Shown one piece after another: positions 40,010-56,636 of a stretch of DNA of 64,000 nt (positions are counted from its first letter, which is position 1; every line of letters begins with the position of its first letter). A program made the position numbers and the translations under genes. The notes beneath the pieces are model-generated. The model ran no database searches and was not told the origin of the DNA. It saw only the letters and a program-made list of their open reading frames with translations. This DNA comes from Nitrobacter sp. (lineage in GTDB: Bacteria > Pseudomonadota > Alphaproteobacteria > Rhizobiales > Xanthobacteraceae), in assembly GCF_051535215.1 (NCBI RefSeq), contig NZ_JBPPLY010000009.1, positions 67,417-131,416 on the forward strand. The letters are read 5' to 3'.

Positions 40010-40245
40010 CACGACTGAGACGGGCGCGCGAACGGCCTTGCCGTTCGCCTGACCCCGTTAAGAATAGCAGGCGCCCATGCCTCTCTGGTCCCGGCGGCAA
40101 GTCCGGCGGCCCGGGCTGCACGGGTCGTGCCGCCATTAGCTGGAATGTCGGCCGTTTTCGTTAACCGTTGTCCCGCCATCGCTTGATTTGGGTTTCCGCG
40201 GCCGATACGGTCGCCGCGCTTTCACCCGAATCTCCGACAAGTCCG

Positions 40246-41190
40246 ATGGATACCCTGCCTCCGCACATGCGCCCGGAACGCTCGTTCCAGGGCTTGATCC
40301 TGACCCTGCAACGCTACTGGGCGGACTATGGCTGCGTGATTTTGCAGCCCTATGACATGGAGGTGGGGGCGGGCACCTTCCATCCCGCGACCACGCTTCG
40401 CGCGCTGGGGCCGAAACGCTGGAATGCGGCCTATGTGCAGCCCTCGCGCCGTCCCAAGGACGGCCGCTACGGCGAGAATCCCAACCGCCTGCAGCACTAT
40501 TATCAGTTTCAGGTGATCCTCAAGCCGTCGCCGCCGGACATCCAGGACCTCTATCTGAAATCGCTGGCCGCGATCGGCGTCGACAGCGCGCTACACGACA
40601 TCCGCTTTGTCGAGGACGATTGGGAAAGCCCGACGCTGGGGGCGTGGGGTTTGGGGTGGGAGTGCTGGTGCGACGGCATGGAAGTCAGCCAGTTCACCTA
40701 TTTCCAGCAGGTGGCGGGCGTCGAATGCGCTCCGGTGGCGGGCGAACTCACCTACGGGCTGGAGCGGCTGGCGATGTTCGTGCAGGGCGTCGACCGCGTC
40801 TACGATCTCAATTTCAACGGCCGCGAGGGCGCCGACAAGGTGAGCTACGGCGATGTGTTCCTGCAGGCCGAGCAGGAATATTCGCGGCATAACTTCGAGC
40901 ACTCCGATACCGCGATGCTGTTCGAGCAGTTTAGGATGGCCGAAAGCGCGTGCAAAACATATCTCGATGCCGGCTGGCAGGACGATCCGAAGCAGCCCGG
41001 CAAGCATGAGGCGCACCTGATGGCGCTGCCGGCCTACGACCAGTGCATCAAGGCGAGCCACGTCTTCAATCTGCTCGACGCGCGCGGCGTAATCTCGGTG
41101 ACCGAGCGGCAAAGCTACATCCTGCGCGTGCGCGACTTGGCGAAGGCCTGCGGCGAGGCGTGGCTCCATACCGACGCGGGCGGCGTCTAA
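40246..41190 (+). CDS. glyQ: Glycine-tRNA ligase alpha subunit
   Basis: '[16 protein letters not shown]', '[19 protein letters not shown]', '[22 protein letters not shown]'. Confidence 0.98.
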
Positions 41191-41194
41191 GCGA

Positions 41195-43447
41195 ATGCCC
41201 GATCTTCTGTTCGAACTTTTCTCCGAGGAAATTCCCGCGCGCATGCAGGCGAAGGCGGCGGACGACCTGCGCAGGATGGTCACCGACAAGCTCGTCGCCG
41301 AGGGTCTTGTTTATGAGGGCGCGAAAGCCTTCGTCACGCCGCGTCGCCTCGCGCTCACCGTGCATGGCATTCCCGCGCGTCAGCCCGATCTCAAGGATGA
41401 GCGCAAGGGACCGAAGGTCGGCGCGCCCGACGCCGCCGTGCAGGGCTTTTTGAAAGCCGCGGGGCTGAAGTCGCTGGACGAAGCCAAAATCCAGCGCGAT
41501 CCGAAGAAAGGCGATTTCTACGTCGCGCTGATCGAGAAGCAGGGACGGCCCGCGATCGAGGTGCTGGCGGAACTCCTTCCGGTGATCGTGCGCACTTTCC
41601 CATGGCCGAAGCAGATGCGCTGGGGCGAGCGTTCGGCCAGGCCCGGCGCGCTGACATGGGTGCGGCCGCTGCATTCGATCGTTGCTACCTTCGGCATGGA
41701 GACTGAGGAGCCGGACGTGGTGCCGTTCGACGTCGCCGGCATCACAGCGGGGCAGGTGACGCGCGGTCACAGGTTCATGGCGCCGGACGAATTCAGCGTG
41801 CGGCGCTTTGAGGATTACGAAGCGAAATTGCAGGCGGCGAAGGTCGTGCTCGATCCGCAGCGACGCAAGGACATCATCCTCGCCGACGCGAAAGAACTGG
41901 CGTTCGCGCAAGGCTATGAGCTGATCGAGGATCAGGCGCTGCTTGACGAGGTCGCGGGCCTCGTCGAATGGCCGGTGGTGCTGATGGGTTCGTTCGACAA
42001 GGAATTTTTGTCGATACCGGGCGAGGTGATCCGCGCCACCATCCGCAACAACCAGAAGTGTTTTGTCGTCAACGATCCAAAGACCAGTAAGCTCGCCAAC
42101 AAATTCATTCTCGTCGCCAACATCGAGGCGAGTGACGGCGGCAAGGCGATCGTCGCCGGCAACGAGCGCGTCATCCGCGCGCGGCTGTCGGATGCGAAGT
42201 TCTTCTACGAGACCGACCTGAAGACGAAGCTGGAAGACCGGCTGCCGAAGTTCGAGCAAATCGTGTTTCATGAAAAGCTCGGCACCCAGGCCGAGCGGAT
42301 CGCGCGCATCGAACGTCTGGCCGCCGAGATCGCGCCGCTGGTCGGTGCTGATGTCGAGAAAGCGAAGCGTGCGGCGCGTTTGTGCAAGGCCGATTTGTTG
42401 ACCGAAGTCGTCGGCGAATTTCCCGAACTGCAGGGCCTGATGGGAAAATACTACGCGCTTGCACAGGGCGAGGATGCGTCCGTCGCCGCGGCGTGCGAGG
42501 AGCACTACAAGCCGCAGGGACCGAACGACCGCGTGCCAAGCGATCCTGTTTCCATTGCAGTCGCGCTCGCCGACAAGATCGACACGCTGGTCGGTTTTTG
42601 GGCGATTGATGAAAAGCCCACGGGCAGCAAGGATCCCTATGCGCTGCGACGCGCGGCGCTGGGGGTGATCAGGCTAATACTGGAAAATAATCTTCGAATA
42701 AATTGGTTAAGAAAATTGCCTGCCGTTGCAACTGCGAAGCTTCTTGTCGATTTGAGGTTTATGCAGTTGACCGAACAGCATCATCAGCTCAAAAAACTTG
42801 AAGCAATAGGATTTGACAGTCAGACTATTCAGCAACTCGAGCAATTTTTAGTACAAGAAGCTGGGCGTGATGCTGCGATCAAATTCGCCGATGCGACGGC
42901 TAATTTTGCGTGGGAACTATTTAATAATCTTCTCGCCTTCTTCGCCGATCGTCTGAAAGTCCAGCTCCGCGAGCAGGGCGCGCGGCACGATCTTGTCGAT
43001 GCGGTGTTTGCCTTAGAAAGACAAGACGATTTGCTGATGATCGTCCGCCGCGTCGAGGCACTCGGAAAATTCCTCGACACCGATGACGGCAAGAACCTGC
43101 TCGCCGGGACGAAGCGCGCGTCGAACATCCTTGCCATCGAGGAGAAGAAGGACAAGCGCACGTTCGATGGTGCACCGGATGCATCGCTTTACAGGCTCGA
43201 CGAAGAGAAGGCGCTGGCCAAGGCCATCGATCAGGCAAAGGTTGAAGCAAGCGCTGCTGTCGCCAAGGAAGATTTCGCAGCCGCCATGGCTGCGATGGCG
43301 AAACTGCGGCCGGCGGTCGATGCCTTCTTCGACAGGGTAAAGGTCAACGACGACGACCCTGATATCCGTGAGAATCGCCTGAAGCTGCTCAACGAAATTC
43401 GCGCCGCGACACGCACGGTCGCCGATTTCTCCAGGATTCAGGATTGA
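41195..43447 (+). CDS. glyS: Glycine-tRNA ligase beta subunit
   Basis: '[13 protein letters not shown]', 'TPRRLAL', 'WVRPLHSIV', '[11 protein letters not shown]', '[14 protein letters not shown]', 'NRLKLL'; contains an AT-rich internal block. Confidence 0.97.
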
Positions 43448-56509: not shown

Positions 56510-56545
56510 TGAATGTTACTCCTTTAAGGAAATGCTCCTGTTTGT

Positions 56546-56636
56546 CGTCATGACCGGACTTGTTCCGGCCATCCGCCTTCTTTCCCGGTTGAAGGGGAAG
56601 AAGCCGTGGATCACCGGGACAAGCCCGGTGAAGACG
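56546..56636. repeat. CGTC-type REP doublet between groES and groEL
   Basis: CGTCATGACCGGACTTGTTCCGGCCATCC...GTGGATCACCGGGACAAGCCCGGTGAAGACG. Confidence 0.82.

Follow-up and report, generated by a model that had tools for sequence, protein, structure and literature searches.

Genes for aminoacyl-tRNA synthetases figure in textbooks as slowly evolving and informative about vertical descent. What, then, is an AT-rich, foreign-looking block doing in the reading frame of glyS, the gene for the beta subunit of glycyl-tRNA synthetase (GlyRS), in Nitrobacter sp.? The block lies in a stretch of 64,000 nucleotides (positions 67,417 to 131,416 of the forward strand of contig NZ_JBPPLY010000009.1, assembly GCF_051535215.1), hereafter called the window. 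A first-pass annotation of the window had proposed that a hypervariable cassette was swapped in through recombination between the conserved parts on either side, and this proposal gained support from the non-homology of the segment among relatives, from conflict with the tree of the flanks and from a breakpoint in a sister genus. In our view the block is probably one allele of a hypervariable, length-variable glyS cassette that is reassorted by homologous recombination.

An AT-rich block in the open frame of glyS

We analyzed the base composition of the block and its surroundings. At window positions 42671 to 42930 of the forward strand, 106 of the 260 bases are G or C (40.8%), which confirmed the earlier hand count of about 41%. 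For comparison, the GC content is 62.8% in the whole window, 62.6% in the 5' part of glyS and 58.8% in its 3' part. The block is the lowest-GC 260-bp stretch of the window, and only 0.03% of the sliding windows have a GC fraction of 0.42 or less. Even the non-coding DNA of the same genome is less AT-rich than the block, because the intergenic pieces of at least 150 bp in the whole genome (n = 659) have a median GC fraction of 0.568 and only 0.15% of them are as low as 0.42.

The reading frame of glyS (41195 to 43447) is uninterrupted through the block, as had been noted. In this frame, the GC fraction at third codon positions (GC3) dropped from ~0.8 in the glyS flanks to 0.3 to 0.4 in the block. 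An index similar to the codon adaptation index (CAI), derived from 1084 long open reading frames (ORFs) of the genome, fell from 0.68 to 0.32 in the block and was 0.61 after it. All the rare codons that had been named were found among the 76 codons of the block (CTA once, ATA once, TTA twice, AGA once and AAA four times). The codons downstream, which had also been described as less adapted, proved ordinary and do not mark a second foreign stretch. The lower GC3 of the 3' part of glyS is slight and is seen in relatives as well. The codons TTAGAAAGA at 43013 were considered as the scar of a second insertion and rejected, as they are homologous to TTG GAA GGA in relatives.

Unrelated segments occupy the same site in related bacteria

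We searched for GlyS in 41 related genomes and found it in 39. Matches within the genus stopped at residue ~505 and restarted at residue ~577. The non-conserved part, or cassette proper, spans 42701 to 42928 on the forward strand and encodes residues 503 to 578 of GlyS (NWLRKLP...AWELFNN, 76 aa). It is bordered by a conserved left flank of 27 aa (42620 to 42700, forward strand) and a conserved right flank of 22 aa (42929 to 42994, forward strand); the latter was delimited by the invariant or near-invariant columns of 44 sequences and by alignment to the E. coli GlyRS beta subunit (7yse_C). The AT-rich codons start already inside the left flank (AGG CTA ATA ... AAT AAT CTT CGA ATA).

The 12 other Nitrobacter species have unrelated sequences of 20 to 112 aa at the cassette site. 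The alignment of relatives showed invariant flanks around a segment of 14 to 112 aa without resemblance between species, the non-homologous, length-variable pattern for which the first-pass annotation had proposed to test. Across all the GlyS proteins examined, the length of the cassette ranged from 14 to 166 aa, and dozens of types were present among 120 database GlyS proteins with inserts of 20 to 166 aa. Every relative, complete genomes included, has an insert at this site.

The left flank of the window's GlyS is 92 to 95% identical in protein sequence to those of the 12 other Nitrobacter species, and four-fold degenerate sites are 0.69 to 0.78 identical. By our own correction this corresponds to ~0.3 substitutions per site, an unsaturated divergence. 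The inserts of the same species, compared against shuffled sequences, gave alignment z scores of at most 1.8 for DNA and 2.7 for protein. Since neutral drift in place would leave ~70 to 75% DNA identity, these unalignable inserts appear to have been replaced and not merely to have diverged.

The inserts have a GC fraction of 0.42 to 0.55 in every Nitrobacter species and a GC3 of 0.36 to 0.52, as opposed to ~0.8 in the flanks; the exception is a 20-aa short form (genome G022) with a GC3 of 0.75. The hypervariable cassette is present in Nitrobacter, Rhodopseudomonas, Afipia and Bradyrhizobium. Long inserts with lower GC were found in sporadic Bradyrhizobium species and in most of the Rhodopseudomonas and Afipia relatives. 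The Bradyrhizobium japonicum group has a conserved segment of 28 to 29 aa with a GC fraction of 0.61 to 0.69 and a GC3 of 0.76 to 0.90, in agreement with the short, GC-rich Bradyrhizobium segment of ~35 aa that the first-pass annotation had named.

Cassettes are exchanged by recombination

Clustering of all inserts of at least 40 aa yielded several types, each common to more than one genus. For example, members of the 112-aa type (T112) occur in two Nitrobacter species and in Bradyrhizobium betae and align without gaps at 36% identity. The tree of the flanks follows the genera, and approximately unbiased (AU) tests on the flanks rejected trees that unite the carriers of a type (p-AU of 1e-164 and 2e-101). 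The synonymous divergence (dS) of the inserts also disagreed with that of the flanks (0.14 versus 0.47, 0.30 versus 0.74, 0.82 versus 0.37, and saturated versus 0.53), and the mismatch ran in both directions. Furthermore, GlyS pairs with N-terminal flanks up to 99.2% identical carry unrelated inserts.

Two strains of Rhodopseudomonas palustris, BisB5 and a second strain, are 99 to 100% identical in DNA over 2.9 kb upstream of the cassette, a region made up of glyQ, 1.4 kb of glyS and the gene that lies between the two. The identity collapses at the cassette, which measures 151 aa in one strain and 57 aa in the other, and returns at ~96% after it. This switch is a recombination breakpoint at the cassette, and the proposed breakpoint analysis thus found a sharp one between near-identical strains. 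The conserved parts of the window's glyS (41195 to 42680 and 42940 to 43447) are mosaic as well, with the best-matching Nitrobacter changing every ~150 to 500 nt. One genome (G015), for example, is 95 to 97% identical to the window over residues 126 to 300 only.

The allele in the window has only distant relatives

The window's own allele was assigned to a type named T79. We searched the whole genome with the insert using BLASTN and TBLASTN and found no second copy, only the insert itself. A search with the insert alone, as had been suggested, marked it as an orphan: the word-indexed search of 5.8 billion proteins with residues 497 to 580 returned only the window's own protein. An exhaustive HMMER search of 1.84 billion representative sequences gave no credible match to the insert. 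Two HMMER hits were judged spurious, being long tandem-repeat proteins in which weak matches (~20 to 28 bits each by BLASTP) were summed. No match to the insert was found in phage and plasmid collections, either in DNA or in protein. The Pfam search with the insert alone gave nothing above threshold, with DUF3829 as a sub-threshold hit (E of 0.17).

Two inserts of 78 aa, one from an Afipia metagenome-assembled genome (MAG; locus L035) and one from an uncultured alphaproteobacterial MAG (L038), are distantly related to the window's insert (L001). They have the same length with at most one gap, ~21% identity and a z score of ~8. A profile built from L035 and L038 only detected the window's insert with 22.0 bits and an E value of 1.9e-5, as compared to 8.7 bits for the best of 2000 composition-matched shuffles.

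Selection on the cassettes and their AT-richness

The ratio of nonsynonymous to synonymous divergence (dN/dS) within shared insert types was 0.12 to 0.58 in five same-type pairs, compared to 0.07 to 0.11 in the flanks. Because these within-type ratios are below 1, the inserts must be translated and constrained, evolving faster than the flanks and without a sign of positive selection. The first-pass annotation had invoked diversifying selection; the observed ratios are those of purifying selection, with none above 1, and lend it no support.

Members of one type had 38 to 49% nucleotide identity, with identity at four-fold degenerate sites near chance, and all were still AT-rich. Since even such saturated members of a type stay AT-rich, the AT-richness looks like a maintained state and not like a recent import that has yet to ameliorate. 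It is possible that the AT-richness comes from relaxed codon selection, and selection at the DNA level is another possible source. A third possibility is that the cassettes drift to the AT equilibrium set by mutation because no heteroduplex can form between unlike alleles, which would spare them from GC-biased gene conversion. A hidden intragenic promoter had also been suggested, but no sigma-70-like promoter was found in the block on either strand, and terminator-like sites occurred at the background rate.

Probable position of the cassette in a helical hairpin of GlyRS

The glyS gene (41195 to 43447, forward strand) encodes a protein of 750 aa. Pfam detected PF02092 (tRNA_synt_2f) at residues 4 to 605 (E of 2.4e-191, 637.7 bits) and DALR_1 at residues 640 to 736 (36.6 bits). 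The search of the PDB with phmmer identified the E. coli GlyRS beta subunit (7yse_C, E of 2e-116), with residues 4 to 503 and 574 to 749 of the window's GlyS aligned to residues 6 to 499 and 519 to 689 of 7yse_C. With these family features, the gene encodes the beta subunit of the bacterial (alpha-beta)2 GlyRS. The E. coli subunit has ~19 residues where the window's GlyS has ~70.

By alignment to 7yse_C, the left flank corresponds to loop H18-19 and helix H19 of the E. coli subunit. In E. coli, G473, D474, D476, R481 and R482 of this region contact acceptor-stem pairs 1 to 4 and U73, and R531 likewise contacts the stem (PMC9908026). Judging from the printed alignment, not from the structure, R531 would be the arginine of FFADRLK after the block, and the helix of the right flank would return to the tRNA. 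In the scheme of Ju et al. (PMC8464048), the HD domain of the GlyRS beta subunit comprises residues 341 to 540 and the anticodon-binding domain everything from residue 541 onward; in a 2023 preprint (10.1101/2023.05.29.542759), the acceptor-stem latch counts as a domain of its own ('ATL'). The cassette follows the helix that recognizes U73 and the acceptor stem and is itself followed by the next conserved helix; the anticodon-binding domain lies ~40 residues further on. The site corresponds to residues ~500 to 518 in E. coli numbering, within the HD domain or the ATL domain of the preprint. The alignment thus suggests that the block forms the distal tip of a helical hairpin that holds the tRNA at its base, and that it does not belong to the anticodon-binding domain itself. 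The first-pass annotation had placed the block at the entrance to the anticodon-binding region; it does lie between the conserved flanks that were named, but at the hairpin tip of the HD or ATL domain and not in the anticodon-binding domain proper.

An AlphaFold2 (AF2) model was calculated from a shallow alignment of 44 sequences. The model was poor overall, with a mean predicted local distance difference test score (pLDDT) of 63.7, and was used for the secondary structure of the insert only. It predicted helices at residues 509 to 537, 542 to 555 and 558 to 593 with pLDDT values of 61 to 81, and the last of these helices extends into the conserved helix of the right flank.

The gene upstream of glyS, listed at 40168 to 41190 on the forward strand, is glyQ, which encodes the alpha subunit; the listed TTG is perhaps not its true start, which may be farther downstream. 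In the R. palustris glyS loci, the neighboring gene carries PF02091 (tRNA-synt_2e). At two of these loci (L137 and L138), a 144-aa gene of the DUF559 family (Vsr-like endonuclease) lies between glyQ and glyS at 1067 to 1501 and directly adjoins the start of glyS. The two R. palustris strains have the same form of this gene (100% identity); it is absent from the window, where glyS begins 4 nt after glyQ.

Repeat-derived cassettes and other insertion sites in glyS

In three relatives (L037, L048 and L083), a dispersed palindromic repeat of ~90 nt that is read in frame makes up the whole cassette. In the cassette of R. palustris 2.1.18 (L083), the repeat is translated as ...AVMAGLVPAIHAL...DARDKRGHD. 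This R. palustris genome (G041) gave 80 matches to the repeat over both strands, or ~40 copies; in the window's genome there were 27 matches, which were weaker. A weak match with 71% identity is located at 56544 to 56636 of the window (positions 123960 to 124052 of contig C9 in genome G000).

In addition to the cassette site, glyS of Nitrobacter has two more loops with in-frame insertions, at residues ~296 and ~606 to 610 (for example, L030 of G012, L010 of G021 and L012 of G006). The equivalents of these loops in the window, at ~42080 and 43010 to 43021, are empty. The second one, an L-E-R-Q loop encoded by TTA GAA AGA CAA on the forward strand, is homologous to TTG GAA GGA CAG in relatives and has 11 to 65 extra residues in six genomes (G021, G012, G006, G009, G015 and G018). 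The loop peptides are GC-rich (68 to 77%), such as PLRGEVAARSAAGGGG...PPPQGEGG, and are built of short palindromic repeat units, which recur at other places in the respective genomes as well as in that of the window. From these sequences, the loops of glyS seem to accept mobile DNA that is read in frame, as with the Rickettsia palindromic elements (RPE).

For the AT-rich orphan alleles, including that of the window, no source was identified. The window's insert contains only short (17 nt or less) and imperfect inverted repeats, none of them terminal. Its cassette does not qualify as an RPE-like element, being single-copy and having neither a palindrome nor terminal inverted repeats. A perfect 10-nt direct repeat, AATAATCTTC, is present at both edges of the block on the forward strand, at 42686 to 42695, where it codes for N-N-L, and at 42923 to 42932, 237 nt (79 codons) away. 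It was considered as a target-site duplication and given little weight, since both copies encode residues that are conserved in relatives (E-N-x-L and N/D-D/N-L-L). The pair may be a coincidence or a usable microhomology.

Several known kinds of inserted or variable element were rejected as well. Inteins have Cys, Ser or Thr at the N-junction, His-Asn followed by Cys, Ser or Thr at the C-junction, and a Hint domain of at least ~130 aa. The insert has 76 aa only, starts with N-W, ends with N-N followed by Leu and shows no Hint domain of Pfam. A target of a diversity-generating retroelement (DGR) was rejected, as no template repeat was found in the own genome at the DNA or protein level. The frame is continuous and no Rfam match was found in the block at an E value of 1 or less, which excluded a self-splicing intron or structured RNA.

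A parallel case in hisS

We scanned the whole genome for long in-frame blocks of low GC within ORFs of high GC3. The scan gave four hits: an assembly gap, a TonB-type receptor whose low GC is explained by its composition, glyS and hisS. The gap is a run of N inside an apparent long ORF at ~17800 to 18080 of contig C7, a false low-GC hit. The hisS gene lies outside the window (contig C2:25326-26993) and has an in-frame block of low GC3 (0.35 to 0.55) at residues ~200 to 345. The core of this region in HisRS, residues ~245 to 312, is non-homologous and length-variable among Nitrobacter (loci L111 to L136). The long forms of hisS have a GC3 of 0.52 to 0.64, as opposed to ~0.8, and the shortest forms are GC-normal. 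By these comparisons, hisS appears to have the same pattern as glyS in the same genome.

Alternative explanations

Divergence in place, by which a vertically inherited, unconstrained loop would have drifted past alignability with no exchange, is strongly disfavored, and we consider it very unlikely. The inserts do outpace the flanks (dN of 0.03 to 0.55 within types versus 0.03 to 0.09), and their length varies across the whole order. However, four-fold sites in the flanks differ by ~25%, a divergence at which drifting inserts would still be alignable; unrelated inserts follow upstream DNA that is 99 to 100% identical; the types are common across genera and not within genera; and a dN/dS below 1 is not that of an unconstrained loop. 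A recent in-frame insertion of foreign or mobile DNA private to this lineage, derived from a phage, a plasmid or an RPE-like miniature inverted-repeat transposable element (MITE), seems unlikely. It would agree with a composition far below that of the genome at all three codon positions, with the orphan state of the block, with the perfect copies of AATAATCTTC at both edges and with the in-frame palindromic repeats in other alleles and loops of glyS in relatives. However, the block is single-copy in the genome and lacks long terminal inverted repeats, the phage and plasmid collections contain no match, and the residues encoded by both copies of the direct repeat are conserved. Homologues with the same site and the same length in two other genera further indicate that the insert was not born in this lineage. 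An assembly artefact, namely a chimeric join in a MAG, is extremely improbable. With 40 contigs and a completeness of 93%, the genome may be a MAG, but the 76 AT-rich codons are exactly in frame and free of stops, both junctions lie inside conserved helices, the same site is filled in every relative, and the insert is homologous to same-site inserts elsewhere.

Two further explanations concern what maintains the variation. Negative frequency-dependent (diversifying) selection could keep the diversity if GlyRS were exploited by a factor that docks on its exposed tip, for example a phage protein or a contact-dependent or plasmid toxin. This driver is compatible with the recombination mechanism, and we give it a small chance. 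The dozens of unrelated alleles in ~120 sequences, the replacement between near-identical strains, allele lineages older than species and the same pattern in hisS of the same genus would all fit. However, the within-type dN/dS never exceeds 1, no partner is known, short forms without the cassette are fixed in large clades, and balancing selection would not be needed for the diversity if many species each fixed a single allele. It is tempting to view the GlyRS tip and the HisRS insertion domain together as an intracellular 'variable surface', where a docking phage takeover protein, or a delivered toxin in need of a host factor, selects rare alleles, so that dozens of ancient alleles would be retained and moved among genera, although we regard this as doubtful. 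Evasion of a toxin or phage as the driver, which the first-pass annotation had raised, is speculation, and no test here supports it; silencer binding is likewise speculation. A role at the level of DNA or RNA, such as an intragenic promoter, a MucR-type silencer site or a translational pause, with the protein sequence secondary, is highly improbable. It would account for AT-richness that persists through saturated divergence as if maintained, and for the fall of the CAI-like index to 0.32 just before a domain boundary. Against it stand the missing sigma-70-like promoter on both strands, the missing Rfam match, the dN/dS below 1, which shows that the protein sequence matters, and the short GC-normal alleles without any such element.

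A model for the cassette

We therefore favor a cassette reassorted by homologous recombination. The tip of the hairpin, far from the tRNA, would tolerate almost any in-frame helical or loop sequence because the base of the hairpin, not its tip, grips the acceptor stem. The tip would hold many old, fast-evolving alleles that are reassorted by homologous recombination, and some of them arose when a dispersed palindromic repeat inserted in frame. The T79 allele would have entered the Nitrobacter lineage of the window when homologous recombination took place in the conserved flanks, and would not be a product of divergence in place. Its AT-richness would be a long-standing property of the cassettes and not the mark of a very recent import. 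The cassette is presumably dispensable for aminoacylation, because GC-normal short forms of 20 to 29 aa serve related genera.

Some observations weigh against this model. The relatives of the T79 allele are only ~21% identical, so any transfer would be old. The N-terminal flank nearest to that of the window is 96% identical, and the mapped breakpoint is that in R. palustris. The model does not account for the AT-richness: 41% GC is lower than nearly all intergenic DNA, which simple relaxed constraint does not predict. In addition, given the poor AF2 model, the geometry of a 'distal tip' rests on the published E. coli structures and sequence alignment.

Comparison with known systems and implications

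In mosaic genes such as the flagellin gene fliC or those of specificity subunits such as hsdS, a hypervariable center is exchanged by recombination through conserved ends. The glyS cassette shares with them the conserved ends, a non-homologous, length-variable middle of lower GC, many alleles, conflict with the species tree and, as seen in R. palustris, a breakpoint at the edge. However, those genes encode surface or specificity proteins under known diversifying selection, whereas glyS encodes an essential cytoplasmic synthetase with no known selective agent and a within-type dN/dS below 1. The palindromic elements of Rickettsia and Wolbachia, reportedly described by Ogata et al. in 2000, are repeats found in frame in housekeeping genes. 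As in that case, essential proteins have extra peptides in their surface loops that are translated without splicing, and some glyS alleles of relatives match it closely, with the ~90-nt repeat in ~40 genomic copies and the GC-rich units at the two other loops. The window's cassette differs, being single-copy, non-palindromic, AT-rich and orphan.

Lineage-specific insertion domains of synthetases are similar in that the insert is presumably dispensable and occupies a permissive surface position, as the 20- to 29-aa short form works in related genera. However, such insertions are normally stable clade markers, and the glyS cassette differs in nearly every species and even between strains that are 99 to 100% identical. 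AT-rich, fast-evolving ORFans of bacterial genomes are said to have been treated by Daubin and Ochman in 2004. The cassette resembles them in low GC, fast evolution and homologues confined to a narrow group, but it is part of an essential gene and not a gene by itself, and its AT-richness persists even where divergence is saturated. Inteins and DGR targets also place extra or variable sequence in frame in a conserved gene; the cassette has no intein junctions, length or domains, and the genome has no template repeat. In a limited full-text literature search, we found no report that glyS or any other synthetase gene of these bacteria contains a hypervariable cassette.

Beside the helix that reads the acceptor stem and the discriminator base, GlyS of these bacteria thus has a piece of 20 to 166 residues that exists in dozens of unrelated versions, is swapped between strains whose neighboring DNA is otherwise identical and is AT-rich in genomes of 62 to 65% GC. 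As a practical consequence, neither glyS nor hisS can safely be used for phylogeny or typing in this family if the cassette is left unmasked. The cassette site is also a natural, well-tolerated insertion point in the GlyRS beta subunit that could serve for tagging. More generally, the finding bears on whether cytoplasmic housekeeping proteins can undergo allele-diversifying selection. If the escape from gene conversion is true, the cassettes would serve as a natural experiment on what makes genomes GC-rich and keeps them so.

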